This document shows, in pieces, positions 6,147 through 32,214 of a stretch of DNA of 64,000 nt. Source of the stretch: Thermoanaerobaculia bacterium (GTDB lineage: Bacteria > Acidobacteriota > Thermoanaerobaculia > Multivoradales > JAHEKO01); contig CAMYOG010000026.1 in NCBI GenBank assembly GCA_947259925.1, forward strand, positions 24,196 through 88,195. The letters are read 5' to 3'. A program made the position numbers and the translations under genes. Numbering within the stretch: the stretch's first letter is position 1; each line of letters starts with the position of its first letter. The notes beneath the pieces were generated by a model that did no database searches, was not told where the DNA came from, and was given only the letters and a program-made list of their open reading frames with translations.

Positions 6147-6187
6147 GTCCGGCGGGCTTCACAGGCCCGACGAGGACCGTCGCAGGG

Positions 6188-6216
6188 TTGTAACATCGTT
6201 GCCATACGCTGGCCAT
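6188..6216 (+). promoter_or_regulatory. Candidate Pho box (three 7-mers at 11-bp period)
   Basis: TTGTAAC-atcg-TTGCCAT-acgc-TGGCCAT resembles the PhoB CTGTCAT-N4 repeat; lies upstream of pstS. Confidence 0.5.
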
Positions 6217-6384
6217 GGGAGAGCGGCACGCTGGTCTTCGCCCACTGGAACGGGTGGGAGAGGCAACCGTGCGCTGGCGTGTACGGCCGGGAGGAAGCGG
6301 CTGCTACGTTTCAGCCATCGGGAGTGAAGACCCGGCACGGGCGTCGACGGGGCGCAGCGTGCTCCAACCAGAAGGAGGCTCGAT

Positions 6385-7266
6385 TTGAGAAACCGACTCG
6401 CACTCGGCGTGGTTGTGCTGTTGGTGCTCGCCTGTGGCAGGCCGTCCGGAGAGCGCGGCGGTCGCGCCCTGATCCAGAACAAGGGCTCGGACACCCTGGT
6501 CAACGTTGCCCAGGCGTGGGCCGAAGCGTACAAGGAAGTGAATCCGAACGTCGGCATCGCGGTCACCGGCGGCGGCTCCGGGACCGGCATCTCGGCGATG
6601 ATCAACGGCACGGTCGATCTTGCCAACGCCAGCCGCAAGATGAAGGACAAGGAGCTCGAGGCGGCTCGCGCCAACGGGATCGAGCCGGTCGAGTTCGTAG
6701 TCGGCTTCGACGCCCTGGCGGTGTTCGTTCATCCCGACAACCCGGTGGAGGGTTTCACGCGGGCGCAGCTGGCGGAGATCTACGGTGAGGGAGGCTCGGT
6801 CGAGGGCTGGGATCAGCTCGGCCTGGCGATACCCGGCTGCGACAGCAACGAGATCGTCCGGGTCAGTCGGCAGAACAACTCCGGCACCTACGTCTACTTC
6901 CAGGAAGCGGTGCTGGGCAAGGAGCGCGACTTCAAGCTGGGCTCGCGCGACATGCACGGCTCCAAGGACGTGGTCGATCTGGTCGAGAACACCCCGTGCG
7001 CGATCGGCTACAGCGGACTCGCCTACGCCAACGAGCACGTGAAGATGCCGTGCGTCTCGACCAGCGACAACGGCACCTGCGTCTTCCCGTCCTCGGAGAC
7101 CGCCATCGACGGCAGCTATCCCATCGCCCGGCCGCTGCTCATGTACAGTGCCGGCCAGCCTCAGGGGATCGTGAAGGTGTACCTGGACTGGATTCTGAGC
7201 GACGCCGCGCAGTGCATCATTCAGGACAAGGGTTACGCGCCCGTACGGGCGGTGAGCTGCGGCTGA
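6385..7266 (+). CDS. pstS: Phosphate ABC transporter substrate-binding lipoprotein PstS
   Basis: TTG start after AGGAGG; lipobox LVLAC; KGSDT, GGGSGTGI, ANASR, SRQNNSGT, YPIARPL. Confidence 0.92.
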   Translation: MRNRLALGVVVLLVLACGRPSGERGGRALIQNKGSDTLVNVAQAWAEAYKEVNPNVGIAVTGGGSGTGISAMINGTVDLANASRKMKDKELEAARANGIEPVEFVVGFDALAVFVHPDNPVEGFTRAQLAEIYGEGGSVEGWDQLGLAIPGCDSNEIVRVSRQNNSGTYVYFQEAVLGKERDFKLGSRDMHGSKDVVDLVENTPCAIGYSGLAYANEHVKMPCVSTSDNGTCVFPSSETAIDGSYPIARPLLMYSAGQPQGIVKVYLDWILSDAAQCIIQDKGYAPVRAVSCG

Positions 7267-7347
7267 TGTGAAAGTGCCAACCTTGGGCCGGCGGTCGGCC
7301 GGGTGGCGGTCGCCAGCCGGTCCTCGAGCAGCAGGCAGGAGAGGCCG

Positions 7348-8439
7348 ATGAGTCACTACGAAGAGCGCCTGGAACAGGATCTGAACACGATTCGGAGCCG
7401 TGTTCGCGAGGTCGGCAAGCAGATCGAGACCGCGCTCGAGCGCGCCGTGCACGCACTGCTGACCCACAACACGGCGTTGGCTGCCGAGGTCGTTCTGGGC
7501 GACCTCCCGATCAACCGGGAGGTGCGCGCCATAGACGCTCTCTGCCACGCGTTCGTCGCACGCCACCTGCCGAGTGCCGGTCACCTTCGGTTCGTCTCGT
7601 CGGTCCTGCGGCTGAACATCGAGCTCGAGCGGATCGGCGACTATGCCGTCGCGATCGCGCGCGAGGTGCAGCAGCTCTCTCAAGCTCCTCCCGATACCGT
7701 GCTGCGTGACATCGACCTGATCGCGGACCAGGCCAAGCTGATCCTCCACCAGGCGCTCCAGGCGTTCGACGAATCGAACGCCGACATGGCCCGGGCGACG
7801 AAGGCCATGGGCAAGCAGGTCGAGAGCACGTTCCAGAACGTCCTCTCCGATCTGCTGGACGAGGGCGAGAAGAGAGAACGGCCGCTGATGGACCTCTTCG
7901 CTCTGTTGGTGGTGATCAACCGGCTCGGGCGGGTCAGCGACCAGGCGAAGAACCTGTGTGAAGAGACGATCTTCGCGGTGACCGGCGAAACCAAGGAGCC
8001 CAAGATCTACCGGCTGCTGTTCGTCGACGAGACCAACGACTGCTACAGCCAGATGGCCGAGGCGTTCGCGCGCAAGGTCTTCCCCGAAAGCGGCCGCTAC
8101 GCGAGCGCCGGTTGGCAGCCGGTGGACGCCCTCCATCCGGGCTGCGCGCGGTTTCTCGACCGGAACGGGCTCGACGCGAGCGATCTGGCGCCGAGTCTCT
8201 TCGACCTGCCGACCGAGGAGTTGGCCGACTATCACGTGGTCGTCAACCTCGAGCACGGAGAGGAGCCGAAACTGCCCCCGATCCCGTTCCATACGGTGCT
8301 CCTCAACTGGGACGTCGGGCCCTCTCCGGCCGGACTCGACCAGCAGCGGGCGGACGCCCTGATCGAGGAGGCCTACAAGGAGATCTCGACCCGGGTTCGC
8401 GATCTCATGGAGCAGCTGCGCGGCGAGGGGGCCGGCTAG
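7348..8439 (+). CDS. phoU: PhoU fused to C-terminal LMW-PTP/ArsC-like domain with degenerate active site
   Basis: PhoU motifs ELERIGDYA, LGRVSDQAKNLCE; then LLFVDETNDCYSQMAEAF..ASAG matching the LMW-PTP LFVCxxNxCRSQMAEA pattern. Confidence 0.88.
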   Translation: MSHYEERLEQDLNTIRSRVREVGKQIETALERAVHALLTHNTALAAEVVLGDLPINREVRAIDALCHAFVARHLPSAGHLRFVSSVLRLNIELERIGDYAVAIAREVQQLSQAPPDTVLRDIDLIADQAKLILHQALQAFDESNADMARATKAMGKQVESTFQNVLSDLLDEGEKRERPLMDLFALLVVINRLGRVSDQAKNLCEETIFAVTGETKEPKIYRLLFVDETNDCYSQMAEAFARKVFPESGRYASAGWQPVDALHPGCARFLDRNGLDASDLAPSLFDLPTEELADYHVVVNLEHGEEPKLPPIPFHTVLLNWDVGPSPAGLDQQRADALIEEAYKEISTRVRDLMEQLRGEGAG

Positions 8440-9362
8440 TGCCGCAAGCCTCGCCTCGAGGCGGCGACGCGATCGATCGCCGCAACCTGGACTGGTACAT
8501 CGACAAGGGTGTCCAGGTCCTGGTCTTCATCGGCGGCGTGTCGGGCATCCTGTTCGTGATCAGCATCTTCGTGTTTATCACCAAGGAAGGCCTCGGGTTC
8601 CTCACCGAGCAGTTCAGCATCGGCGAGTTCTTCGGCTCGCCGCGCTGGGCCCCGACGTCGAGCCACAACCCGACCTACGGCGCCCTGGCCCTGATCGCCG
8701 GAACGGCGAGCGTGACCGGGCTGGCGATGGTCATCGCGGTTCCGTTCTCGCTGGGAGCCGCCATCTTCATCGGTGAGTTCGCGACCGGCAAGCCGCGCGA
8801 GTATCTGAAGGTCCTGGTCGAGCTTCTCGCCGCGATCCCTTCGGTGGTCTGGGGGTTTATCGGCCTGAGCATCATGAACCCCCTGATCATCAAGCTGTTC
8901 AATGTCCCGGTCGGGCTGAACGTGCTCAACTCGGGCTTCATTCTCGGCCTGATGGCGGCGCCGATCATGACCACCATCGCCGAAGACGCCCTCAAGGCGG
9001 TTCCGGATACCTATCGCGAAGCGGCGGAGGCGCTGGGTGCCACCCGCTGGCAGGTCATCCTCAGGGTGGTCATCCCGGCGGCCAAGCCCGGGCTGCTCGC
9101 CGCCGTGCTCCTGGGCGTCGGCAGGGGCTTCGGCGAGACCATGGCGGTCTTGATGGCGAGCGGCCACTCGATCAACCTGCCGACCAGCGTCTTCGACTCG
9201 GTGCGTGCGCTGACCGCGACCATCGCCGCCGAGCTGGGTGAGACGGCGGTCGGCTCCGATCACTACCGCGCCCTGTTCACCCTCGGCATCTTCCTCTTCG
9301 TCGTCACGTTCGTCATCAATTTGACCGCCGACCTAGTCGTCCGCGGGATCCGCAGGAAGTAG
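8439..9362 (+). CDS. pstC: Phosphate ABC transporter permease PstC
   Basis: ELLAAIPSVVWG, EAAEALGATRW, GRGFGETMAV; GTG overlaps phoU stop. Confidence 0.93.
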   Translation: MPQASPRGGDAIDRRNLDWYIDKGVQVLVFIGGVSGILFVISIFVFITKEGLGFLTEQFSIGEFFGSPRWAPTSSHNPTYGALALIAGTASVTGLAMVIAVPFSLGAAIFIGEFATGKPREYLKVLVELLAAIPSVVWGFIGLSIMNPLIIKLFNVPVGLNVLNSGFILGLMAAPIMTTIAEDALKAVPDTYREAAEALGATRWQVILRVVIPAAKPGLLAAVLLGVGRGFGETMAVLMASGHSINLPTSVFDSVRALTATIAAELGETAVGSDHYRALFTLGIFLFVVTFVINLTADLVVRGIRRK

Positions 9363-9366
9363 AGCC

Positions 9367-10236
9367 ATGTTCGAAGCCTCGGATCTCAACGAGAGGAATC
9401 GGCGGGTCGAGCGCCTGTGGCGCCTGCTCTTCCTGGTGATGACCGTGCTCCTGATCGTGCCGGTCGTCGTCATCCTGTCGGTCCTGATCCACAAGGGCGG
9501 CCCGGTCTTGTCGATCGATTTCCTCTTTACCGAGCCGGTCCAGGGGATGACGGCGGGCGGGATCTTTCCGGCTCTGGTCGGCACCGTCTGGCTGGTCACG
9601 GTCGCGCTGCTGGCGTCCGTCCCGATCGGCGTCGCCGCGGCTCTGTACCTGAGCGAGTACGCCCCCGACAACTGGCTCACCCGCGCCATCAACCTGGCGA
9701 TCATCAACCTCGCGGGCGTGCCGTCGATCGTCCACGCCCTCTTCGGCGTCGGCGCGTTCGTCCTCTTCTTCAGGTTCGGCACCAGCATCCTGGCGGCGAG
9801 CCTCACCCTCGCGATCATGACCCTGCCAGTGGTGATCGTCGCCACGCGCGAGTCGCTCCAGGCCGTGCCACAGGCATTCCGCGAGGCCTGCTGGAACATG
9901 GGCGCGACCCGCTGGCAGACCATCCGTCGCGTGGTCCTTCCCAACTCGATCAGCGGGATTCTGACCGGAGTGATCCTGGAGGTCTCGCGCACCGCTGGCG
10001 AGACCGCCCCGATCATGTTCACCGGTGCCGCGTTCTTCCTACCCTTTCTTCCGCAGAGCGTCTACGACCAGACCATGGCGATGTCGCTCCATCTGTTCGT
10101 CATTTCGACGCAGGTCCCCGGCGTTCCCGAGGCGTTGCCGTTCGGGGTCGCGCTGGTGCTGATCTCCATGGTCCTGGCGATGAACGCCATCTCGATCGCC
10201 TTCCGCATGCATCTGCGAAGTAAGAAGAAGTGGTAG
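9367..10236 (+). CDS. pstA: Phosphate ABC transporter permease PstA
   Basis: YLSEYA, NLAGVPSIV, GATRWQTI, SRTAGETAP. Confidence 0.93.
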   Translation: MFEASDLNERNRRVERLWRLLFLVMTVLLIVPVVVILSVLIHKGGPVLSIDFLFTEPVQGMTAGGIFPALVGTVWLVTVALLASVPIGVAAALYLSEYAPDNWLTRAINLAIINLAGVPSIVHALFGVGAFVLFFRFGTSILAASLTLAIMTLPVVIVATRESLQAVPQAFREACWNMGATRWQTIRRVVLPNSISGILTGVILEVSRTAGETAPIMFTGAAFFLPFLPQSVYDQTMAMSLHLFVISTQVPGVPEALPFGVALVLISMVLAMNAISIAFRMHLRSKKKW

Positions 10237-11006
10237 CCGCCGAGCCCCAGGCACGACCCCTGCTGGAAGTTCGGGATCTTGCGATCCGCTATGGCGACAC
10301 GCTCGCCCTCAGCGGCGTCACCCTCGAGGTCCAGAAGCACGAGATCTTCGGCATCATCGGTCCCGCCGGGAGCGGCAAGACCTCCTTTCTCCGCACTCTC
10401 AATCGGATGGACCAGTTCACGCCGTCGATGTCGGTGGACGGTGAGATCCGCTTCAACGGCCGCGACATTCGCCGCTGGCGCAACGTCTACTCGCTCCGCC
10501 GCAAGATCGGAGTCGTATTCCCGCTGCCAGTCGGCCTGCCGCTGAGCGTCTACGACAACGTCGCTCTCTCGCCTCGGCTGGGCGGCATCAAGAAGAAGGC
10601 CGATCTCGACGTGATCGTCGAGCGCTGCCTGCGCCGAGCCGCCCTCTGGGACGAGGTCAAGGACCGGCTCGACTCGCTGGGGAGTCTCCTGTCGGGTGGT
10701 CAACAGCAGCGTCTGACCATCGCCCGGGCGCTCTCCCAGGGCCCGGAGCTCCTGCTGCTCGACGAGTTCTCGATCGCGGTCGACCCGGTGACCACCATGC
10801 GGATCGAGGACGTGCTCAAGGAGCTGCGCCAGGAGATCACCATCGTCCTGGTCACCAACCTGGTGCAGCAGGCGCGCCGGCTGGCCGACCGGACCGCCTT
10901 CTTCCTGACCGGCGAGTGCGTCGAGATCGCCGAGACCGAGCGCATGTTCACCCGTGAGGTTCAGGACGAGCGCACGCGTGACTACGTGGAGGGTCGGTTT
11001 GGCTAG
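10230..11006 (+). CDS. pstB: PstB-like ABC ATPase 1 (intact signature; degenerate Q-loop, D-loop and H-switch)
   Basis: GPAGSGKT, LNRM, LSGGQQQRL, LLLDEFSIAVD, VTNLVQQARR, TRDYVEGRFG. Confidence 0.88.
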   Translation: MVAAEPQARPLLEVRDLAIRYGDTLALSGVTLEVQKHEIFGIIGPAGSGKTSFLRTLNRMDQFTPSMSVDGEIRFNGRDIRRWRNVYSLRRKIGVVFPLPVGLPLSVYDNVALSPRLGGIKKKADLDVIVERCLRRAALWDEVKDRLDSLGSLLSGGQQQRLTIARALSQGPELLLLDEFSIAVDPVTTMRIEDVLKELRQEITIVLVTNLVQQARRLADRTAFFLTGECVEIAETERMFTREVQDERTRDYVEGRFG

Positions 11007-11784
11007 CGCCGAGGCCGTCTCCGACATCGCGATCGAGACCCGGCAGGTCAACCTCTGGTACGGGACGTTCCAGGCGCTGTTCGACGTCGATCTCCAGATC
11101 CCGCGCGGCAGGATCACCTCGATGATCGGCCCGTCGGGGTGCGGTAAGACAACTTTCTTGCGCAGCGTGAATCGGATCAACGAACGGCTCGGCTATGTGC
11201 GCACGACCGGCTCGATCGAGGTGCTGGGCTACGACATCTACGCACCTGACGTCGAGCTGGTGCAGGTGCGCAAGCGGATCGGTATGGTCTTCCAGCGGCC
11301 GAACCCACTCCCTCTTTCAATCCGCGACAATGTGGTGTTCGGCTATCGGGTCCATTCGGGTCGCAGGAAGATCCCGCAAACGGAGCTGGACGAGCTGGTC
11401 GAGTCGGCGCTCCGTCAAGTGCTCTTGTGGGACACGGTGAAGGACCGCCTGGACCGGCAGGCTACCGAGCTGTCGCTCGAGGAGCAGCAGAAGCTGTGCA
11501 TCGCCCGCCTCCTGCCGGTGAAGCCGGCTGTGCTCCTGATGGACGAGCCGTGCTCGGCTCTCGACCCGAAGGGCACCGAGGCGGTCGAGGAGTTGATTTG
11601 GCAGCTCAGGGGCGACTACACGATCCTCATTGTGACGCACAACATGGCGCAGGCGCGGCGAGCGAGCGAAGAATGTATCTTCATGTTGCTGGGCAAGGTC
11701 GTCGAGCACGCTCCGACCGACGAGATCTTCGTGACCCCGCGCAACCAGGAGACCGCCGACTACATCGAGGGCCGCTACGGGTAG
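10999..11784 (+). CDS. pstB: PstB-like ABC ATPase 2 (degenerate signature LSLEEQQ)
   Basis: GPSGCGKT, GMVFQRPNP, LLMDEPCSALDP, VTHNMAQA, DYIEGRYG; TTG start after GGAGG. Confidence 0.9.
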   Translation: MASAEAVSDIAIETRQVNLWYGTFQALFDVDLQIPRGRITSMIGPSGCGKTTFLRSVNRINERLGYVRTTGSIEVLGYDIYAPDVELVQVRKRIGMVFQRPNPLPLSIRDNVVFGYRVHSGRRKIPQTELDELVESALRQVLLWDTVKDRLDRQATELSLEEQQKLCIARLLPVKPAVLLMDEPCSALDPKGTEAVEELIWQLRGDYTILIVTHNMAQARRASEECIFMLLGKVVEHAPTDEIFVTPRNQETADYIEGRYG

Positions 11785-11830
11785 AGTCGATCACGATGCC
11801 TACGTCGAGGGCTGGCCGAGGGAGGGGCGC

Positions 11831-12226
11831 ATGACCGAACCCAGACTGACCGACGTTCCTGGCGTGGGAGAGGCGACCGCGAAGGCCCTCGCCGCGGTGG
11901 GGATCGGTAACGCCGGCGATCTGGCCCGGGCCTCGACGGCCACGTTGACGGCGGTGCGGGGGCTCGGTCCCTCGAGAGCCGCCTCGATTCGAACGGCTGC
12001 CCGCTCGCTCCTCGAGACCGACTCGGACGGGTCCCACCCCGGACTCGACACGGTCCCAAGCAAGAAGAAGAAGAGAGACAAGAAGAAGGACAAGAAAAAG
12101 GACAAGCGGAAGCGCAAGAAGAAGCGCAAGGACAAGCGAAAGAAGAAGGACAAGAAGGGCGGGAAAGGCAAGAAGGACAAGAAGCGAGGCAAGGGAAAGA
12201 AGAAGAGGAAGAAGAACAAGAAGTAG
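11831..12226 (+). CDS. Helix-hairpin-helix protein with poly-Lys/Arg C-terminal tail
   Basis: Two HhH motifs (LTDVPGVGEATA, LTAVRGLGPSRA); last 54 aa contain 42 K/R; GGAGG SD. Confidence 0.85.
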   Translation: MTEPRLTDVPGVGEATAKALAAVGIGNAGDLARASTATLTAVRGLGPSRAASIRTAARSLLETDSDGSHPGLDTVPSKKKKRDKKKDKKKDKRKRKKKRKDKRKKKDKKGGKGKKDKKRGKGKKKRKKNKK

Positions 12227-12247
12227 CGATTCGCGCTACCCTACGGC

Positions 12248-13024
12248 ATGCTCGAAGCGCTCGATCTCAGCAAGAGCCTGGCCAAATCGGTCTACAAGCA
12301 GCAGCTACCCGCCCTCCAGATGCGGCTGCATCGCCTCCAGAGAGCGTGCTGGGAGGCGAAGGTGGCGACGGTGGTCGTCTTCGAAGGCTGGGATGCCGCC
12401 GGCAAGGGCACCACGATCCGCAAGCTCACCCAGCGCCTGGAGCCACGTGGCTTCTCCCTCTACGCCATCCAGGAGCCGAGGACGTTCGAGCGGCAGCTGC
12501 CCTGGATGTGGCGCTTCTGGGTCAACCTGCCGGAATGGGGAGAGATCGCTATCTTCGACCGCAGCTGGTACGGCCGGGTCTTGATCGAGCGCGTCGAGGC
12601 TCTGACCGAGGAAGAGCACTGGCGCAAGGCCTACGGAGACATCGTCTCCTTCGAGCGGGGCCTGGCGGACGACCGGTACCTAATCATCAAGTTCTTCTTC
12701 CACATCTCCAGGGAGGAGCAAGAGGCGCGCTTCCAGCAGCTCGAGAGCGACCCAGCGACCGCCTGGCAGGTCGAGCCGGAGGACTGGGAGCATCACCGGA
12801 ACTACGACCAGTACCTGGTCGCCATCGAGGAGATGCTCGAGCGCTCGGAGAGCGAGTGGGGGCCGTGGACGCTGGTCGAGGCGACCGACCACAGATGGGC
12901 TCGGGTCAAGGTGTTCGAGAAGCTCATCCAGCGGATGGAGGCGGGGCTGACCCACCACGGCTTGGCCGTGCCCGAGCCGCTGGAGGCCGAGCTGTTCTCG
13001 AGCGAGGAGGAGGACGAGGATTAG
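12248..13024 (+). CDS. ppk2: Polyphosphate kinase 2 family protein (copy A, acidic tail)
   Basis: VFEGWDAAGKG, LEPRG, WRFW, FDRSWYGRVLIERV, KFFFHIS. Confidence 0.9.
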   Translation: MLEALDLSKSLAKSVYKQQLPALQMRLHRLQRACWEAKVATVVVFEGWDAAGKGTTIRKLTQRLEPRGFSLYAIQEPRTFERQLPWMWRFWVNLPEWGEIAIFDRSWYGRVLIERVEALTEEEHWRKAYGDIVSFERGLADDRYLIIKFFFHISREEQEARFQQLESDPATAWQVEPEDWEHHRNYDQYLVAIEEMLERSESEWGPWTLVEATDHRWARVKVFEKLIQRMEAGLTHHGLAVPEPLEAELFSSEEEDED

Positions 13025-13025
13025 G

Positions 13026-13739
13026 ATGCTCTCCACCGTCGATCTCACTCTCAACCTGGACCGCGCTGACTACAAGAAGCAGCTGCTCGAGTGTCAGCTG
13101 GAGCTACGCAAGCTGGCGCTCGAGCTCTACCAGCAGAAGCGTTCGCTGGTGGTGGTGGCCGAGGGTTGGGACGCCGCCGGCAAGGGGGGCTCGATCCGCC
13201 GGGTTACGGAGAAGATCGACCCGCGTGGATACCAGGTCTACGCGATCAGTGCCCCGGGAGCCGAGGGCAAGAGCCATCACTACCTCTGGCGCTTCTGGCG
13301 ACGGTTGAAGGCGCCGGTCGAAAAGCAGATTCTGATCTTCGACCGCTCCTGGTACGGCCGCGTCCTGGTCGAGCGGGTCGAGGGCTTCGCCACCGAAGAG
13401 GAGTGGCGGCGTGCCTACCGCGAAATCAACGAGTTCGAGCGCCAGCTGACCGATCATGGGATGACCCTGGTCAAGCTCTGGTATCACATCAGTAAGGACG
13501 AGCAGCTGCGCCGGTTCGAAGCCCGGAGAGAGACGCCCCACAAGGCCTGGAAGCTGACCGACGAAGATTGGCGCAATCGAGACAAGTGGGAAGCCTACGA
13601 GGCGGCGGTCGACGACATGCTGGTCAAGACCTCGACCCTGACCGCCCCCTGGACCGTGATCGAGGGGAACGACAAGCTCTGGGCTCGCATCAAGACCCAG
13701 AGGACGTTGATAGAGGCGCTCACAGAGGCTCTTGCGTGA
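13026..13739 (+). CDS. ppk2: Polyphosphate kinase 2 family protein (copy B; like the C-terminal half of polyP:AMP phosphotransferase)
   Basis: EGWDAAGKG, DPRGY, HYLWRFW, FDRSWYGRVLVERVEG, WKLTDEDWRNR, APWTVIEGNDK. Confidence 0.92.
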   Translation: MLSTVDLTLNLDRADYKKQLLECQLELRKLALELYQQKRSLVVVAEGWDAAGKGGSIRRVTEKIDPRGYQVYAISAPGAEGKSHHYLWRFWRRLKAPVEKQILIFDRSWYGRVLVERVEGFATEEEWRRAYREINEFERQLTDHGMTLVKLWYHISKDEQLRRFEARRETPHKAWKLTDEDWRNRDKWEAYEAAVDDMLVKTSTLTAPWTVIEGNDKLWARIKTQRTLIEALTEALA

Positions 13740-13841
13740 GTCGCTTGTCGGCCCCCGCGATCAACGGGCCCGGTCGATTCGTCGTGCTACAGTTTTTTAC
13801 TCTCGCATGAGCTCTCCCCTGCCGATCGGCTCACCGCGGCC

Positions 13842-16322
13842 ATGACAGGCAAGCACGAAGCTCCCAGCACCAGCGACGACAAGGGCCGGCGGCGGCAGCT
13901 CATGGTGGTCTGCACCGGAGGCCTCCGGCAGCGCTTCCTGCGCGGAATGATCACCCGAGACCTGGTGCTGCGCGGCCTCGGTTTCGAGGACGCCTACGCC
14001 GTGGCGCGGGCGATTCGGGACGAGCTCTCAGACCGCGAGGAGGTGACGACCGACGAGATCCAGGATCTCATCTCCGCCCGGTTGGAGATGATGTTCGGCA
14101 GCGACATCCCGGATCGGCTCACCTTCCCCGGTCGGCCTCTCTCGGAGATCCGTGTCGTCTACGAGGGGCAGGAGCAGCCGTTCTCACGCGGCCTGCTCGC
14201 CCGCAGCGTCTATGCGGCGGGCATCGATCTGGACCGTGCCTACGGACTGCTGACCGAGCTCGAAGCCGAGCTTCGCCAGGAGGGGGTCGACCGGCTGGCC
14301 TCGGGCGAGATAGCCCGCCGGGTCGCCGATCTGTTGGAGCGCAAGGAGGGACCGGAAGCGGCTCGGCGATACCGTACCGTGCGCCGGATCGGTCGGCTGG
14401 CGAAGCCTCTGATCATCTACATCGGCGGTGCCAGCGGCACCGGCAAGTCGACCCTGGCGCTCGAGCTCGCACCGCTCCTCCGGATCTACCGGATCAACGC
14501 CACCGACACCATCCGCCAGGTCATGCGAATGGTCTTCACGCCGTCGATCTTGCCGGCTATTCACACCTCCAGCTTCGAGGTCGCGCACCTTCCCGAGCCC
14601 GCCTCCGGCCCGCCCGGCCCGACGAGGCCCGGTGATCCGGACTTCGGCTCCCGGGTCATTCAGAGCTACGAGGAGCAGACCATCCGGGTGATCGTCGGGA
14701 TCCGGGCGGTCGTCGAGCGCGCGATCGCCGAGAACCTGAGCCTGATCGTCGAAGGGGTGCATGTCCATCCGGGGCTGGTACCGTTCGCGGACTTGCAGGG
14801 CTCGGCCCACCAGGTCGCTCTGGTCCTCGCGACCCTGCACGAGGAGGACCACCGGGCGCGCTTCCTCGCCCGGTCGCGCGCCGGTGGCCGCAAGGCGGAG
14901 CGCTATCTAGAGAGCTTCGGGGCGATCCGCGAGATCCACGATCACATCCTGCAGGAGGCGGAGCGGCGTGAGGTGCCGCTCCTGGACAACCCGGCGGGAG
15001 AGTCCCCGGTCGGACCTACTCTGGGCCTGATCACCAGCATGCTGGAGCACACGACGCCCAGCCTCGGCCTGGGCGAATGGCCCGACCTGGCCCCCTCGGC
15101 CGCGACGCTGCTGCTGATCGTCGACGGGTTGGCCGATCGGCCGATCCGCGCACTCGGTGGACGGACGCCGCTGCAGGCCGCCGACACGCCGACGCTCGAC
15201 CGACTGGCGAAGGATGGCCAGTGCGGCCTGGCCGATCCGATCGCCCCGGGCGTGGTCGCCGACACCGCCGCGGGCTGTCTGGCACTCTTCGGACAGTCGC
15301 CGATGAGTCTCAAGCGGGGTCCGACCGAAGCGCTCGGAGCGAGCCTGCCGATGAGTCCCGGAGATGTCGCGCTGCGCGGCAACTTCGCCACCCTCGGCGA
15401 GAACGGGCAGATCATCGACCGCCGGGCCGGCCGGATCCGCGAAGGGGCCGCGGAACTGGCCGCAGCGATCGACCATCTGGCCCTGCCCGGCGGCCTCTCG
15501 CGCGAGGTCGAGGTCCGCGTGCGGGCGGGAACCGAGCACCGCCTGGGCGTCGTTCTCCGGGGCACCACCCTCTCACCCGCCATCCAGGGCAGCGACCCGG
15601 GCGAGGGAGCGCTGCCCAGCCCACCCCTGGTTCCGCGACCGGACGACCCCGATGACGCCCTGGCGGTCTACACCGCCAACGTCCTGGCGGTGTTCGAGCA
15701 GGAGGCTCGACGGGTGCTGGCGAATCACAAGATCAATCGCAAGCGCAAGAAGGACGGGCTCCCCCAGGCCAACGCCGTCCTGACCCGTGGTGCCGGGCGG
15801 ATCCACAGCCTGCTGCCGCTCGAGGAGGCGGGCGTTCCCCTACGGGTCTGCTGTATCAGCGGCGATCAGACCGTGTTGGGACTGGCCCGCTGGTCGGGAG
15901 CCAGGACCCGAACCACTCCGGAGATGACCGCCAACCTCGACACCGATCTGCGGCAGAAATTCGACATCGCCCGCGAGGAGCTCGAGCGGAGCGACCTGGT
16001 GCTGCTGCACGTCAAGGGAGCCGATATCGCCGCCCACGACCAGCGCCCCGACCTCAAGGCGTCGTTCATCGAGCAGATAGACAAGAACCTGAATCGCATG
16101 TTGAAGCGCGTCACCGGGCCGGTACGCATCGCGGTCGCGTCGGATCACGCCACCCTCTCGGAGAGCGGTCAGCACGCCGCCGATCCGCTGCCAGTCTTGA
16201 TCTGGGGAGAGGGCGTCGAGGCCGACGAGATCGAGACCTTCGACGAGCAGTCGGCCGGCGGCGGCAAGCTCGAGCGGTTTCCGCTCCAACTGCTGCTCAG
16301 CCGGCTCTACCGGCTCTCCTGA
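13842..16322 (+). CDS. Fusion: two ATP-cones + 2-phosphoglycerate kinase + ApgM-type (alkaline phosphatase superfamily) phosphoglycerate mutase
   Basis: ATP-cone-like repeats (FLRGMITRDL..AYAVA; PFSRGLLARS..AYGLL); 2PGK motifs GGASGTGKST, TDTIRQVMR, IHTSSF, VEGVH; ApgM motifs IVDGLADRP, TPLQAADTP, ALRGNFAT, DRRAGRI, HVKGADIAAHD, ASDHAT, HAADP. Confidence 0.85.
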   Translation: MTGKHEAPSTSDDKGRRRQLMVVCTGGLRQRFLRGMITRDLVLRGLGFEDAYAVARAIRDELSDREEVTTDEIQDLISARLEMMFGSDIPDRLTFPGRPLSEIRVVYEGQEQPFSRGLLARSVYAAGIDLDRAYGLLTELEAELRQEGVDRLASGEIARRVADLLERKEGPEAARRYRTVRRIGRLAKPLIIYIGGASGTGKSTLALELAPLLRIYRINATDTIRQVMRMVFTPSILPAIHTSSFEVAHLPEPASGPPGPTRPGDPDFGSRVIQSYEEQTIRVIVGIRAVVERAIAENLSLIVEGVHVHPGLVPFADLQGSAHQVALVLATLHEEDHRARFLARSRAGGRKAERYLESFGAIREIHDHILQEAERREVPLLDNPAGESPVGPTLGLITSMLEHTTPSLGLGEWPDLAPSAATLLLIVDGLADRPIRALGGRTPLQAADTPTLDRLAKDGQCGLADPIAPGVVADTAAGCLALFGQSPMSLKRGPTEALGASLPMSPGDVALRGNFATLGENGQIIDRRAGRIREGAAELAAAIDHLALPGGLSREVEVRVRAGTEHRLGVVLRGTTLSPAIQGSDPGEGALPSPPLVPRPDDPDDALAVYTANVLAVFEQEARRVLANHKINRKRKKDGLPQANAVLTRGAGRIHSLLPLEEAGVPLRVCCISGDQTVLGLARWSGARTRTTPEMTANLDTDLRQKFDIAREELERSDLVLLHVKGADIAAHDQRPDLKASFIEQIDKNLNRMLKRVTGPVRIAVASDHATLSESGQHAADPLPVLIWGEGVEADEIETFDEQSAGGGKLERFPLQLLLSRLYRLS

Positions 16323-16834
16323 GCAGCCCCGCCGCGCGCAAAGCGCGCCAGCGTCTTCGGCGTGCACAGCCACACCAGGGTACCGATCCCGAACTTGGCT
16401 TCCGACCACCGATCGATCGGTAGGTCGACGCGCGCTGTGGCCGCAGTGACCATCCTGACCTCGGCACAGCCGATCAGCCGCCCCACGCTCTCGGACCAGA
16501 CCGGTTCGTGACCGGCCAGCATCAGCCGTTCGATCGCGTCGTCCGCACCCTGGACAGCAGTCAGCAGCTCCTCGGGAGAGCCACCGTAGAGGCGATCGAC
16601 GACCTCGACGTCGCACGACCAGCTCCCCGCGTCGGCTGCGAGCTCGACCGTCGAGCGAGCTCGCACCGCCGGCGAGGTGAAGACCGCGTCCGGAGCCTGA
16701 CCGATCGCCCCCAGGAATCTACCGATGGTCGCCGCGGCCCGGCGCCCGCGCGGGGCGAGCCGTCGCTCGCGGTCGCTCGCGAACTCGCCCGACCAGTCGG
16801 ATTTGGCGTGTCTCAGGAGGTAGAGGTGTCGCAT
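16307..16834 (-). CDS. sixA: SixA-type phosphohistidine phosphatase
   Basis: LLRHAKSDW, SPAVRA, AGHEP; histidine phosphatase superfamily; 3' end overlaps convergent gene by 16 bp. Confidence 0.88.
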   Translation of the reverse strand: MRHLYLLRHAKSDWSGEFASDRERRLAPRGRRAAATIGRFLGAIGQAPDAVFTSPAVRARSTVELAADAGSWSCDVEVVDRLYGGSPEELLTAVQGADDAIERLMLAGHEPVWSESVGRLIGCAEVRMVTAATARVDLPIDRWSEAKFGIGTLVWLCTPKTLARFARGGAAQESR

Positions 16835-16864
16835 CGATCACTGAGGCGGCGGGACCACCGCCGG

Positions 16865-16890
16865 TATACTAAAGCTTCCAATCGCGGAGG
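16865..16890 (+). promoter_or_regulatory. Putative -10 box (TATACT) and SD (GGAGG) for ppk1
   Basis: TATACT 16865-16870; GGAGG 16886-16890, 5 nt before CTG 16896. Confidence 0.5.
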
Positions 16891-16895
16891 TCACA

Positions 16896-19040
16896 CTGGC
16901 TACACTCGAAGATCGTTCGGCACCGCTCGAAGACCAGGCGCTCGACCTGGGCGACAAGGCGTACTACATCAATCGGGAGCTCAGCTGGCTCGCCTTCAAC
17001 GCGCGCGTTCTGGAGGAAGCCCTCGACGAGGAGAACCCACTCCTCGAGCGCGTCAAGTTCCTGTCGATCTTCAGCAGCAACCTCGACGAGTTCTTCATGA
17101 TCCGGGTGGCGGGGCTGCGCCGGCAGCTCGAGGTCGGCGCCCTCGAGGCACCTCCCGACGGCATGACGCCCGCCGAGCAGCTGGCGGCGATTCGCGAGAC
17201 CCTGATGCCGATGCTCAAGCAGCGGTTCCGCTGTTGGCAGGACGACCTCAAGCCGAAGCTCGAGGAGCAGGGCATCCGGGTGCTCGACTACTCCGACCTC
17301 AAGCGCAAGCAGCGCAAGCTGCTCCGGCGCCACTTCGAGCGCGAGATCTTTCCGGTCCTGACGCCGCTCGCCTTCGACCCCGGGCACCCGTTTCCCCACA
17401 TTTCGAACCTGAGCATCAACCTCGCGGTCGAGATCAACGATCCGGGTCACGGCGAGCGCTTCGCGCGGCTCAAGGTTCCGAACGCCCTCGACCGGCTCCT
17501 GCGCATCCCGAGTGAGGAGAAGGCCGGCCGCTACGAGCATCTCGGTCTGGTCGGACCGAAGAGCAGCCACTTCGTCTGGCTCGAGGAAGTGGTCGCGGCC
17601 AATCTGGACCTGCTGTTCCCCGGGCTCGAGATCGTCACCGCGCATCCGTTCCGCATCACCCGGGACGTCGATCTCGAGATCGAGGAGGACGAAGCGGCCG
17701 ATCTGATCACCACTATGCAGGACTTCGTGGCCCAACGGCACTTCGGCTCGGCGATCCGGCTCGAGGTGGACGCCGGGATGCCGGAGCGCATCCGCTCGAT
17801 TCTGAGTCGGAATCTGCGCCTGTCGCCCTACCAGGTCTACGAGGTGGAGGGCCCCCTCGGTCTTTCGGACATGATGGAGCTGACCAGCATCGATCGTCCG
17901 GAGCTGAAGGACCCGCCCTTCCTGCCGCAGTCGCCGCCCGAGCTCACGGGTGAAGAGAGCATCTTCTCGGTGCTGCGCGACCGCGACGTGCTCCTCTATC
18001 ACCCCTACGACAGCTTCGCTTCGGTGGTCGACCTGATCCGCAAGGCGGCTCGCGATCCGAACGTGGTCGCCATCAAGCAGACGCTCTATCGCACCGGCCC
18101 CAACTCACCGATCGTGAAGGCCCTGCGCGAAGCGCGTGAGCAGGGCAAGCAGGTCGCGGCCATGGTCGAGCTCAAGGCGCGGTTCGACGAGGAGAACAAC
18201 ATCGTCTGGGCTCGGGCTCTGGAAGAGGCTGGCGTCCACGTCGTCTACGGCCTGGTCGGCCTCAAGGTGCACTGCAAGATCTGCCTGGTCGTCCGGCGCG
18301 AGGCCCACGGCATCCAGAGCTACGTTCATCTCGGAACCGGCAACTACAATCCGGTCACGGCACGGCTCTACACCGACCTGGGCTACTTCACCACCGATCC
18401 GGAGCTCGCGGCCGACGTCTCCGACCTGTTCAACGCCCTGACCGGCTACTCGAAGAAGACCCACTATCGCAAGCTGCTGGTTTCACCCCACTCGATGCGC
18501 GAGCAGCTGCTCGAGCGCATCGATCGCGAGATCTCGGCCCATCTGGAGGACGGCCAGGGCCATCTCGCCTTCAAGATGAACTCCCTGGTCGACAAGCGCT
18601 GCATCCGAAAGCTCTACGAGGCGTCGCAAGCCGGCGTCAAGGTCGAGCTGCAGGTCCGTGGCATCTGCTGCCTGCAGCCGGGGGTCAGCGGCGTCAGCGA
18701 CAACATCCGGGTCACTTCTGTAGTCGGCCGGTTCCTCGAGCACTCCCGGATCTACTACTTCCGCAACGGCGGCGACGAGGAGATCCTCCTCGGCAGCGCC
18801 GACCTGATGCCGCGCAACCTCGGCGGCAGGGTCGAGCTCCTGTTCCCGGTGCGCGACCCCGAGCTCCTGGCGTCGCTGCGCGACGACATCCTGTTCCTGC
18901 ACCTGCGCGACAACGTCCGCTCCCGCGAGCTGCAAGCCGATGGCACCTACAAGCGGGTGCAGCCGGCCGGCGGCGAGGAAGTCGTCGACTCGCAGGCGTA
19001 CCGCCTGGAGCATCGCGGCTCCTGGCACCCGGAAGACTAG
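16896..19040 (+). CDS. ppk1: Polyphosphate kinase 1 (CTG start; ORF track start 17097 is internal)
   Basis: In-frame upstream YYINRELSWLAFNARVLEEA..LERVKFLSIFSSNLDEFFMIRVAGL; HPFPHISN, YHPYDSF, IKQTLYR, ELKARFDEENN, KVHCK, GTGNYN, GRFLEHSR, GSADLMPRNL. Confidence 0.95.
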   Translation: MATLEDRSAPLEDQALDLGDKAYYINRELSWLAFNARVLEEALDEENPLLERVKFLSIFSSNLDEFFMIRVAGLRRQLEVGALEAPPDGMTPAEQLAAIRETLMPMLKQRFRCWQDDLKPKLEEQGIRVLDYSDLKRKQRKLLRRHFEREIFPVLTPLAFDPGHPFPHISNLSINLAVEINDPGHGERFARLKVPNALDRLLRIPSEEKAGRYEHLGLVGPKSSHFVWLEEVVAANLDLLFPGLEIVTAHPFRITRDVDLEIEEDEAADLITTMQDFVAQRHFGSAIRLEVDAGMPERIRSILSRNLRLSPYQVYEVEGPLGLSDMMELTSIDRPELKDPPFLPQSPPELTGEESIFSVLRDRDVLLYHPYDSFASVVDLIRKAARDPNVVAIKQTLYRTGPNSPIVKALREAREQGKQVAAMVELKARFDEENNIVWARALEEAGVHVVYGLVGLKVHCKICLVVRREAHGIQSYVHLGTGNYNPVTARLYTDLGYFTTDPELAADVSDLFNALTGYSKKTHYRKLLVSPHSMREQLLERIDREISAHLEDGQGHLAFKMNSLVDKRCIRKLYEASQAGVKVELQVRGICCLQPGVSGVSDNIRVTSVVGRFLEHSRIYYFRNGGDEEILLGSADLMPRNLGGRVELLFPVRDPELLASLRDDILFLHLRDNVRSRELQADGTYKRVQPAGGEEVVDSQAYRLEHRGSWHPED

Positions 19041-19117
19041 CCTGGCCTTCTCACCAGCTTCCTACTGCGCCGCCGTATGTTGGCTCGCTACGAAAGCCGG
19101 CGAGAAGGTCAGGCTAG
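19037..19117. repeat. Short copy of the 2750-2931 palindromic element between convergent stops
   Basis: CTAGCCTGGCCTTCTCACCAGCTTCCTACTGCGC..GCCGGCGAGAAGGTCAGGCTAG; left arm matches reverse complement of the 2898-2930 arm at 32/33 nt. Confidence 0.8.
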
Positions 19118-19863
19118 CCCGCCGGTACCCGCTCGCGAATCTCGGCCCAGAGCTGCTCGTAGGCCTTGGCCGGCGCGCTCCAACTCGCGAATCGGTTCAC
19201 CGGCGCCCGGTTGAGGGCCATCTTCTCGACCAGACTCGAGTAGGGCACCGACGTCTGGAGAAACTCGGGCTGCACTCCGACCCCGGCGGTGATCTCCCGA
19301 TGGAGCTTCTTTCGACAGTCGACCATGCAGAAGAACGGCAGGATCCGCGCGCGGCGGAACCGCCGACGTTTGACCAGGTGGCGCTCGAGCCGGTCGAGCA
19401 TCCGAAGTGACAGGGTGGTCGGTATGGTCGGCACGAGCAGCGCGTCGGCGGCCACGAAGACACTCTCCGACAGCAGCGAGATGCTCGGGGCGCAGTCCAG
19501 AAAGACCTCGTCGTACTCGTCGTCGAGCGCCTGCAGAAGCGACGCCAGCCGCCGTGCCGGCTTTTTCATGTCGGCCAGCGCCAGGTCCAGCTTCCGGTAC
19601 GAGAAGTCGGCCGGAAGCAGGTCGAGGTCCTCGAAATCGGTACCTTTGATCACCGCTTCGAGCCTCCGCCCGCCTTCGAGCAGCTTGCGGGCCCCGCCCT
19701 TGACCTTCGGCTTGACGCGGAACATGAAAGTCGCCGCCCCCTGCGGGTCGAGGTCCCAGAGCAGGGTTCGGCGGCCCTCCCGCGCGGCGAGATAGGCGAG
19801 GTTGGCCGCCGACGACGTCTTACCGACGCCGCCCTTGATGTTGTAGAGCGCCAGAACCCTCAC
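19114..19863 (-). CDS. ParA/MinD-family ATPase (orphan, CHAD-associated)
   Basis: Deviant Walker A YNIKGGVGKT, WDLDPQG, LLPAD, FLDCAPS, VPTIPTTLS. Confidence 0.9.
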   Translation of the reverse strand: MRVLALYNIKGGVGKTSSAANLAYLAAREGRRTLLWDLDPQGAATFMFRVKPKVKGGARKLLEGGRRLEAVIKGTDFEDLDLLPADFSYRKLDLALADMKKPARRLASLLQALDDEYDEVFLDCAPSISLLSESVFVAADALLVPTIPTTLSLRMLDRLERHLVKRRRFRRARILPFFCMVDCRKKLHREITAGVGVQPEFLQTSVPYSSLVEKMALNRAPVNRFASWSAPAKAYEQLWAEIRERVPAG

Positions 19864-21443
19864 TCGCTCCCCCCGTCCACGAACATCACTCGGAATCGTT
19901 CGACGGTCTTGGCGGAGCTGAACTTCCCGAACGCTTCGGCGAACCTGCTGCGCTCTCGCGCCTCACCCTGTTCGAGCTCACCGACGAGCCGTCCCAGGGC
20001 CATCACCGCCGTGGTCCCTCCCGAGTCCGCGTCGATCAGCTCCTCGGCCAGGCCAACCAGCATCCGCTTCTGGATTCCGTAGTCGTTGAAGGCGCCCAGA
20101 TTGTCCTGCAGTCGCTTGAGTGCCCGCACCGGGCGATCGATCTCCTCCGGCGGGTAGAGCGTCCGGAACAGCTCGAGGGCGTAGCGGAGCTTCTTACAGT
20201 CGATCCGCAGACGATGAAGATCCTCCGGCGGACTGTCGTCGCTGATCTTCCGGCCCCGCTTCAGCACCTTGCGATGGGCTTTCCGGATCAGGCGGCTCGC
20301 AACCGTACCGATCGGCTCCCTGGCCGCCTCGGGTCGTTCTTCGTCGGCCGGCGGATGTTCCAGGAACGCGCGCCAGGCCTCGATCAGCTCTCGATACCGG
20401 GCGCTCTCGAGCTCTGTCGCCATCCGGCGCTGCGCGCCCTGCTGTCTCGCCTCCAAGAGCTCGCGCAATGGCTCCAGGTCCCGACGGACCGACTCGGCCA
20501 GCTTTGCCGTCGACCCCGGTAGCTCGAGCAGGTAGACGTCGAGATCACGAGTCGGACCGGTCAGCTTACCGAGCCACGAGAACTCCCGGCGGAGAGGCTC
20601 GATCCGTGCCTCCGGCCAGAGCTTCCTGGTCAGACTGAGCGCCGAGCGCGTACGTCGCACCGCTACCCGGAAGTCATGGAGAAATTCGCTGTCCAGGTCG
20701 GCCACAGTGCCGGCGTGGTTCTTTTCGATCGCCCCGAGCAGGGCCCTCAACACCTGGCGGACCGCCTCGTCGGCAGGTGTCGCGACATCGAGCGGTACGT
20801 TCGGCTTCGAAGTGTACTCACCCGCTCGCCCGAAACCCCCCAGGGCCGAGCCCGCCTCGAACTCGTCCGCGTCCCACTCCTCGAGGCCGAGCTCCTTTCC
20901 CAGGAACCGGACCAGCTTGCGGAAGTCGTCCGGGTAGCCCCGGACTCCTCTGACAATCAGGATCGGGGCGAGCGGCCTCCTCCGCTGCCGCGATCCCGGA
21001 GCCCGAGCGGCGGGAACTTCCGCGACCAGACGCACGACGGTCTTGCGGCGGCGGTCGAGAACCCGTAGAAGCCGTCCTTCGGCCTTCACCTCCACGATCG
21101 GCAGCAGGCGACGCATCGTGATGACCGACGCGAGCTTCTGCCGGAAGGGGCTCGCCGGCAGGTCGGCCGCAAACCCGATCGTCTGGAGGTCGTCGGAGCG
21201 GAGATCCAGGCGCTCGGCCCGCGCCCGGCCTTCCGACTGCCATCTCAACTGAGGCCCGCTGGCCGAGGGCTGCAGCCAGAGTCGCGACTTCCTACGCCAC
21301 AGGCGCCAGTCGAAGGTGTCGAAGTAGGTTCGCTGCCGCACCGCCTTCTCGCTCTCGAGGGCGTACCGATCGCCGAGCGCCTCGACCACACGGTCGAGAC
21401 CGGCTTCGTCGGCGACGGTGAAGGCGACCTCGGTCTGGACCAT
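19860..21443 (-). CDS. CHAD-domain polyphosphate-binding protein with N-terminal CYTH-like region
   Basis: TYFDTFDWRL; CHAD motifs EFLHDFRVAVRRTRS, TGPTRDLDV, LHRLRIDCKKLRYALE, LQDNLGAFND. Confidence 0.9.
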   Translation of the reverse strand: MVQTEVAFTVADEAGLDRVVEALGDRYALESEKAVRQRTYFDTFDWRLWRRKSRLWLQPSASGPQLRWQSEGRARAERLDLRSDDLQTIGFAADLPASPFRQKLASVITMRRLLPIVEVKAEGRLLRVLDRRRKTVVRLVAEVPAARAPGSRQRRRPLAPILIVRGVRGYPDDFRKLVRFLGKELGLEEWDADEFEAGSALGGFGRAGEYTSKPNVPLDVATPADEAVRQVLRALLGAIEKNHAGTVADLDSEFLHDFRVAVRRTRSALSLTRKLWPEARIEPLRREFSWLGKLTGPTRDLDVYLLELPGSTAKLAESVRRDLEPLRELLEARQQGAQRRMATELESARYRELIEAWRAFLEHPPADEERPEAAREPIGTVASRLIRKAHRKVLKRGRKISDDSPPEDLHRLRIDCKKLRYALELFRTLYPPEEIDRPVRALKRLQDNLGAFNDYGIQKRMLVGLAEELIDADSGGTTAVMALGRLVGELEQGEARERSRFAEAFGKFSSAKTVERFRVMFVDGGSE

Positions 21444-32148: not shown

Positions 32149-32214
32149 ACTCCCTTCCAGACCCCGGTAGCCTACCCTAGAACCGCCGGAGCGCATGCTA
32201 GACTTCGCCCCGTC

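Follow-up and report, generated by a model that had tools for sequence, protein, structure and literature searches.

2-Phosphoglycerate kinase (2PGK) is the first enzyme toward cyclic 2,3-diphosphoglycerate (cDPG), a compound given, in the accessible part of one account, as exclusive to hyperthermophilic methanogens (PMC10690619). In excerpts of a second source, cDPG is described as a major carbon- and phosphorus-containing solute of Methanothermobacter and is related to phosphate limitation (PMC4302986). Archaeal clusters of orthologous groups (COGs) for 2PGK and for the phosphoglycerate mutase ApgM are shared by Thermus and Deinococcus, according to the available portion of a 2005 study (PMC1274311). 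Here we report a gene of a Thermoanaerobaculia bacterium (Acidobacteriota; assembly GCA_947259925.1, contig CAMYOG010000026.1) in which ATP-cone-like repeats, a 2PGK-family kinase and an ApgM-type mutase are joined in a single open reading frame (ORF), located at positions 13842–16322 on the forward strand of the 64,000-nucleotide stretch that was analysed (the window). Comparison with related sequences leads us to lean, modestly, towards a gene for an ATP-gated bifunctional 2,3-bisphosphoglycerate (2,3-BPG, also written 2,3-DPG) synthase that is co-expressed with phosphate uptake and polyphosphate enzymes.

In the proposed scheme, the C-terminal ApgM domain, which carries Thr in place of the usual Ser nucleophile (Thr-type), would convert 3-phosphoglycerate (3PG) to 2-phosphoglycerate (2PG), and the 2PGK-type P-loop kinase would use ATP to phosphorylate 2PG to 2,3-BPG. 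Adenylate status would probably control the kinase through the N-terminal ATP-cone-like repeats. Co-expression of the gene with pst, phoU, two PPK2 genes and PPK1 is likewise probable and suggests that 2,3-BPG may serve as a soluble organophosphate pool or as a regulator tied to polyphosphate turnover. The initial annotation had put forward channelling between the domains, nucleotide regulation and a second phosphate or energy store, all of which stay putative.

The fused protein is similar to, but distinct from, its archaeal counterparts. With the 2PGK of Methanothermus fervidus (EC 2.7.2.16; cDPG step 1; PRK04220) it shares an ATP-cone followed by a P-loop kinase and the residues kept across the family, but it is bacterial, has an extra degenerate ATP-cone and a fused mutase, and reaches 265 bits where the model requires 343; its gene also differs in its Pst/polyphosphate setting and in belonging to a genome in which no cDPG synthetase (cDPGS) was found. 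With archaeal ApgM (2zkt, 3idd, 3kd8; TIGR00306) it shares the fold (template-modelling (TM) score 0.85), 61 of 64 conserved positions and the metal-ligand positions, whereas it differs in the Thr nucleophile, in the Ala that replaces the following Asp, in the kinase fusion and in being a paralogue beside a Ser-type ApgM.

Architecture of the fused protein

The ORF opens with ATG and encodes 826 residues plus stop in a window of 68% G+C, exactly as the initial annotation of this DNA had described and as the ORF listing confirms. Pfam places an ATP-cone (PF03477) at residues 109–182 (E = 6e-10; 39.9 bits against a cut-off of 25.8 bits), a P-loop at residues 192–226, PhosphMutase at residues 456–632 (E = 2e-29) and Metalloenzyme at residues 422–808 (E = 3e-27). 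Two NCBIfam 2PGK models cover residues 21–384 and 102–400, and the apgM model covers residues 423–817; together, these matches bear out the kinase and ApgM-type mutase anatomy that had been proposed.

Of the two ATP-cone-like repeats in that proposal, the second (residues ~103–185; 14148–14396) is clear, being the one matched by PF03477, whereas the first (residues ~19–100; 13896–14141) is degenerate and on its own scores below the cut-off (Pfam on residues 1–105: 15.3 bits, E = 0.03). The first repeat is nevertheless backed by its BLASTP likeness to the second (residues 23–94 against 105–179; 25% identity, E = 5e-4), by a six-frame match to the ATP-cone portion of the 2PGK model (E = 1.7e-5) and by the strand-strand-helix-helix-strand-helix order that both repeats share in the AlphaFold model.

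The kinase domain (residues ~186–410; 14397–15071) is defined by the NCBIfam matches, by conserved columns and by adenylate-kinase-like fold matches, and contains a Walker A motif at G196–T204 (14427–14453). A short linker at residues 411–417 (15072–15092), where the predicted local-distance difference test (pLDDT) falls below 50, leads into the Thr-type mutase domain (residues 421–826; 15102–16319), which is supported by Pfam, NCBIfam, alignment, tree and fold. The AlphaFold model has a mean pLDDT of 85.3 and is confident on either side of the linker.

The kinase half and a related cDPGS operon

Both 2PGK models score under their equivalog cut-offs on the fused protein (PRK04220, 265.1 bits against 343; PRK12337, 267.1 against 603), and a six-frame search gives 244 bits for the 2PGK model. 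A closer link to the archaeal pathway is provided by a metagenome-assembled genome (MAG) of Candidatus Poribacteria, in which 2PGK, cDPGS and a Thr-type ApgM lie in a row (L081:7323–11230). The 405-residue kinase of this row exceeds the 2PGK equivalog cut-off (374 bits against 343), the 457-residue product of the middle gene matches the solved cDPG synthetase structures 8oru/8ork (E = 3e-131), and the mutase exceeds the ApgM equivalog cut-off (507 bits against 489). The 39 near-invariant columns of the kinase alignment are preserved in the Poribacteria 2PGK as 33 identities and 6 conservative replacements, and most of them are common to 40 further homologues; the residues kept family-wide include T221, D222, R225, R229, H241, Q279, R293, E297, H307, R344, R350 and Y355.

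The Poribacteria row thus shares with the window's protein both families, the Thr nucleophile and physical linkage, but differs in that the genes are separate, a cDPG synthetase stands between them and both the kinase and the mutase exceed the equivalog cut-offs, whereas the window's kinase and mutase are fused in a genome in which no cDPGS was found. Of all the arguments for a pair working on 3PG, 2PG and 2,3-DPG, this operon and the family core that its kinase shares with the window's kinase weigh most. The route from 3PG through 2PG to 2,3-DPG suggested in the initial annotation gains support from this operon and from the near-complete retention of the cores, while the assignment of the substrates themselves stays at the level of probability.

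The names 2PGK and ApgM could also mislead, with the fused protein acting on a different phosphorylated substrate (another phospho-hydroxy acid, an inositol phosphate or a sugar phosphate) in phosphate scavenging or storage. The scores under equivalog cut-offs fit such a reading, as does the identity of 33–43% between the fused clade and the cDPGS-operon proteins. Moreover, other activities occur in both families: the PhpG transferase and a proposed homoserine kinase belong to the ApgM family, and mevalonate-3-phosphate 5-kinase to the 2PGK family, as does plant LPA1 (low phytic acid 1), a weak 2PGK homologue that, in the available part of the report, affects phytate, a phosphorus-storage compound (PMC6417671). 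By that description, LPA1 resembles the window's kinase in its family and in its tie to phosphorus storage, but is eukaryotic and has neither ATP-cone nor mutase. Against such a substrate, the cores of both domains are almost wholly kept, the Arg cluster of ApgM included, and the 2PGK and ApgM models lead widely over the PhpG transferase (224 bits against a cut-off of 545), the proposed homoserine kinase (189 against 446) and mevalonate-3-phosphate 5-kinase (30 against 250). We therefore regard a different substrate as unlikely, though worth serious consideration.

A Thr-type ApgM subfamily linked to 2PGK

The mutase half scores 319.8 bits with TIGR00306 (apgM) on the protein and 322.5 bits in the six-frame search, around a cut-off of 320, and 353 bits with PRK04024 (ApgM; cut-off 489); Foldseek matches it to 2zkt at a TM score of 0.85. 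None of the residues D428, D728, H732, D768, H769 and H778 varies among 51 fused proteins. By analogy with iPGM, these positions would correspond to its binuclear-metal sites, so that the metal ligands would be intact as first claimed.

When the protein is aligned with the solved ApgMs 3idd, 3kd8 and 2zkt, Thr475 (codon ACC, 15264–15266) takes the place of the Ser nucleophile in their GSD motif. The Thr at the usual phospho-Ser position is therefore as initially described, but it is not peculiar to this protein. In an alignment of 102 ApgM domains, from which the truncated loci L028, L077 and L091 had been left out beforehand, Thr is found in 28 of 28 ApgMs fused to a 2PGK-like kinase, in 6 of 6 adjacent to a 2PGK-like gene and in the one ApgM of the cDPGS operon, that is, in all 35 2PGK-linked rows. 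By contrast, all 49 ApgMs from stand-alone loci, whose fetched flanks (up to 10 kb per side) contain no 2PGK-like gene, carry Ser; among 18 cluster representatives whose context was not established, 15 carry Thr and 3 carry Ser. Thr accordingly marks a whole 2PGK-linked ApgM subfamily rather than the single protein.

The Ser/Thr label changes once (Shimodaira–Hasegawa-like approximate likelihood-ratio test (SH-aLRT) 94) on a phylogeny of 86 ApgM domains that was built by a short IQ-TREE search under LG+G4 from 415 columns, that of the nucleophile included, with 16 near-duplicate rows omitted. The tie between Thr and 2PGK is thus the property of one clade and not a repeated correlation. Among 64 columns that are at least 90% conserved in 52 Ser-type ApgMs, 61 are kept in the derived Thr group and three differ, namely 475 (Ser to Thr), 476 (Asp to Ala, His or Ser; Ala in the window's protein) and 815. 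Apart from these changes, the fused mutase is a conservative ApgM.

The changes around the nucleophile raise the prospect that the Thr-type ApgM acts on 2,3-BPG itself, either as a bisphosphate-primed mutase or as a phosphatase or phosphotransferase, with the kinase making the primer or intermediate, so that the protein would be an ATP-gated mutase or would run a kinase/phosphatase cycle. This reading draws on the strict distribution of Thr (35/35 linked, 0/49 unlinked mutases), on the additional change of the post-nucleophile residue and on the adjacency, in 4 loci, of a SixA-like histidine phosphatase, whose superfamily includes the 2,3-BPG-dependent mutases. It also draws on phosphopentomutase (DeoB), a member of the alkaline-phosphatase superfamily that likewise combines a binuclear-metal fold with Thr as the presumptive nucleophile residue, but is a distant fold match (TM about 0.45) with another substrate. 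Phosphopentomutase is primed by a sugar bisphosphate, and the fold matches include entries whose names refer to its T85 variants and to a phosphorylated form. On the other hand, the Thr-type ApgM of the cDPGS operon exceeds the cut-off for ordinary ApgM (507 against 489), a plain supply of 2PG from 3PG is the simplest reading of that operon, 61 of the 64 conserved ApgM positions are retained, and a futile kinase/phosphatase cycle within one polypeptide is hard to justify. Taken together, these points make action on 2,3-BPG itself rather improbable.

Search for a cDPG synthetase

NCBIfam and the local Pfam collection returned no family for genuine cDPGS, for which precomputed annotations show PF27272, and searches were therefore made with the Poribacteria cDPGS protein and then with a 16-row cDPGS profile. 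The single-protein query, with its source genome as positive control, detected cDPGS neither in the window's genome, which is 92% complete, nor in four other carriers, and yielded matches of at most 29 bits in 42 further genomes with the fusion, the gene pair or a lone kinase. With the profile, too, the window's genome produced no hit, whereas the control genome scored 789 bits; across 33 further fusion-bearing genome handles, scores did not exceed 37 bits. Several of these handles are closed chromosomes, and some may be the same genome twice. The lack of a cDPG synthetase in the window, as reported initially, therefore extends to the rest of the genome and to these further carriers, and 2,3-BPG is probably the end point of the pathway in these organisms.

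A feed into cyclic 2,3-DPG synthesis as in methanogens would require that the cyclase was missed, given the completeness of the genome, or is of an unrecognised type. The Poribacteria operon provides a precedent for this, many uncultured bacterial phyla have named homologues of cDPGS, and 11 of the 33 handles, all acidobacterial, contain weak cDPGS-profile stretches of at most 37 bits at positions 226–350 of 457, in ORFs of about 450 residues. This weak cDPGS-like family, however, is missing from the window's genome, and with the negative searches of single protein and profile it renders a cDPG-forming role very improbable.

Two observations concern cDPGS itself. The ORF L093:874–2223 (+), which has no NCBIfam family, and similar ORFs of about 443–466 residues in 11 acidobacterial genomes form this weakly cDPGS-like group. 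Clear cDPGS homologues with 49–77% identity are named from MAGs of Hydrogenedentota, Abyssubacteria, Planctomycetota, Coatesbacteria, Actinomycetota and Cloacimonetes. The presence of cDPGS operons in uncultured bacteria calls into question the restriction of cDPG to methanogens as worded in the accessible text of PMC10690619.

Integrity and distribution of the fusion

All of the 120 homologues listed are 784–865 residues long, with 62–100% identity, and come from many independent assemblies; those that are named belong to Acidobacteriota or Thermoanaerobaculia MAGs and are labelled 'phosphoglycerate mutase', 'ATP cone domain-containing protein' or 'hypothetical'. Further full-length fusions with 38–40% identity are found among cluster representatives. 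In a sample of 301 genomes from the phylum, 30, closed chromosomes among them, have a single open frame that matches the query over its full length, and the two halves are adjacent genes in 4 more; the sample takes in the window's own genome as well as the unpublished genome G054, on which no claim rests. Given these full-length single-frame copies in independent assemblies, the fusion is real. An assembly or frameshift artefact joining two neighbouring genes is hardly credible, even though kinase and mutase genes are separate, overlapping or abutting in some lineages and public reads did not bridge the junction, since the copies and the confident AlphaFold model on both sides of the linker speak against it. 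The one public read run contained 0.10 of the sampled words, and its contigs, mostly 90–95% alike, were scattered pieces of which none spanned 14974–15155, a result that is neutral on the fusion. As for the suggestion in the initial annotation that such a fusion lacks a description, a literature search, in which sources were available in part, found none of the fusion, the Thr subfamily or the polyphosphate link, yet the fusion is not rare and is represented by many database entries under generic names.

Related loci were examined with ORF maps, using one genome per species. True fusions are present in Acidobacteriota and Myxococcota (L030 and L043, 820 residues), whereas separate adjacent or overlapping kinase and mutase genes occur in L031, L076, L090, L073 and L034, which derive from Arenicellales, Lysobacterales, Thiotrichales, a 'delta proteobacterium' MAG and one Acidobacteriota MAG. 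L041 (Planctomycetota) has an empty gene map and is labelled a pair only from a 524-residue stop-to-stop frame that holds the mutase part. Overall, the kinase and ApgM are fused or directly adjacent in Acidobacteriota, Myxococcota, Gammaproteobacteria, Planctomycetota and Poribacteria, in the last with cDPGS between them. The fused or separate state changes three times on the 86-domain ApgM tree. Joining or parting of the two genes therefore happened repeatedly, and this speaks for a function in common. In control searches, Thermus thermophilus and Deinococcus radiodurans also gave matches to both families.

A second ApgM is encoded on another contig of the window's genome (G000:C1:16363–17423, minus strand). 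It is Ser-type (PGSGPGH), of the PRK04135 kind, and is split by an apparent frameshift into overlapping ORFs (locus L003, 1414–1950 and 803–1531; 185 + 273 bits against a cut-off of 468), reflecting either an assembly error or a pseudogene. Neither GpmI nor GpmA was found in the window's genome, and the split Ser-type gene therefore bears on how the organism runs glycolysis. Of the other 29 fusion genomes in the phylum sample, 24 likewise contain a second ApgM-like match, counted irrespective of its nucleophile. In the light of these second copies, the fused mutase domain looks like a dedicated paralogue. The idea that it is the sole phosphoglycerate mutase of the genome is ruled out by the PRK04135-type gene.

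Phosphate and polyphosphate genes around the fusion

The polyphosphate operon setting proposed for the fusion was borne out, as a polyphosphate/Pst setting, by annotation of its neighbours. Upstream on the same strand lie pstS, phoU, pstC, pstA and two copies of pstB (6385–11784), followed by two tandem single-domain PPK2 genes (12248–13739, +), which directly precede the fusion with a gap of 102 bp; a gene for a small helix-hairpin-helix protein is also located upstream on this strand. The 3′ end of the fusion is overlapped by 16 bp by a convergent SixA-like histidine-phosphatase gene (16307–16834, −), and downstream follow the gene for polyphosphate kinase 1 (PPK1; 17097–19040, +) and those for a ParA-like ATPase and a CHAD-domain protein (19114–21443, −). 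A promoter and terminator scan of 6000–17300 returned sites no more numerous than in shuffled sequence and is silent on operon limits.

Several neighbours have features of their own. The PhoU protein (7303–8439, +) scores over its equivalog cut-off and has a C-terminal low-molecular-weight phosphatase or ArsC-like domain (residues 239–365). Both PPK2 proteins are closest to the C-terminal half of the two-domain polyphosphate:AMP phosphotransferase (TIGR03708), as if two like halves stood in place of a two-domain enzyme. The ParA-like gene overlaps the end of the gene for the 527-residue CHAD protein, residues 1–230 of which have no Pfam match. Further away, at 30826–32253 (−), a response-regulator receiver domain is fused to LpxC (UDP-3-O-acyl-GlcNAc deacetylase).

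The surroundings of related loci were surveyed within 10 kb by tblastn with the window's neighbour proteins and by Pfam on further neighbours. Phosphate genes (Pst, PPK2, PPK1, PPX, PhoU or SixA-like) were detected at 11 of 26 fused or paired loci versus 0 of 51 stand-alone ApgM loci, where only generic ABC-ATPase matches of 25–30% identity appeared, in three loci; related genomes in these counts are not independent samples. Pst operons lie near the fused or paired genes in L013, L027, L030, L031, L043 and L073, and PPK2 genes in L027, L033, L076 and L090. PPK1 accompanies a SixA-like gene in L027 and L033, with CHAD also in L033, while L012 has the SixA-like gene alone; in all three of these loci the SixA-like homologue adjoins the fusion. 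PPX occurs in L090 and, by cluster membership, in L033, and a PhoU protein is encoded directly upstream in L016. The clearest operon-like tie of the pair to polyphosphate breakdown is L090:2553–8320, from a Thiotrichales MAG, where co-directional genes for PPX, a two-domain PPK2, the 2PGK-like kinase and a Thr-type ApgM are separated by gaps or overlaps of a few bases.

Discussion

A cone-gated 2,3-BPG synthase that is co-expressed with phosphate genes has the slightly better prospects of being correct, and a number of observations weigh against it. The apgM score sits right at its cut-off and neither 2PGK cut-off is reached, the 2PGK family holds members with other substrates, such as mevalonate-3-phosphate 5-kinase and plant LPA1, and one of the two ATP-cones, the first, is degenerate. 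The Ser/Thr split goes back to one event on the tree, and the combined replacement of Ser by Thr and Asp by Ala at the nucleophile pair could mean altered chemistry. In addition, phosphate genes are lacking in the neighbourhood of 15 of the 26 fused or paired loci, including all six of the L020–L029 group (Holophagales, Ca. Multivorans and related MAGs), which have ApbE, Nqr/Rnf, SpoU, BirA and ValRS as neighbours. Finally, we know of no use for 2,3-BPG in these bacteria.

A wider picture can be offered tentatively, and may well not hold, in which several phyla run a hitherto undescribed 2,3-BPG branch of phosphate economy. Polyphosphate (through PPX and PPK2) or phosphate imported by Pst would feed ATP and thereby 2,3-BPG, made by a cone-gated kinase together with its own Thr-type mutase and possibly removed by the SixA-like histidine phosphatase. 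The product would be a soluble compound that buffers phosphate and energy, or a signal by which polyphosphate turnover is controlled, and the Thr-type ApgMs would constitute a functionally distinct subfamily.

The kinase and mutase families are both already known, and the fusion, the Ser/Thr rule, the link to the cDPGS operon and the failure to find cDPGS in carriers are added here. Apart from its place in the cDPG pathway, 2,3-BPG is familiar from red cells, as a metabolite, and as a mutase cofactor. The Ser/Thr rule is a simple annotation aid that separates housekeeping ApgMs from 2PGK-partnered ones, which databases now name alike. The repeated linkage to phosphate-uptake and polyphosphate genes points to a so far unreported small-molecule branch of phosphate housekeeping. 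If the proposed function is correct, 2,3-BPG would be a new soluble metabolite in bacterial phosphate homeostasis, present in several phyla and wired to phosphate-uptake and polyphosphate genes, and polyphosphate research would gain a testable partner enzyme.

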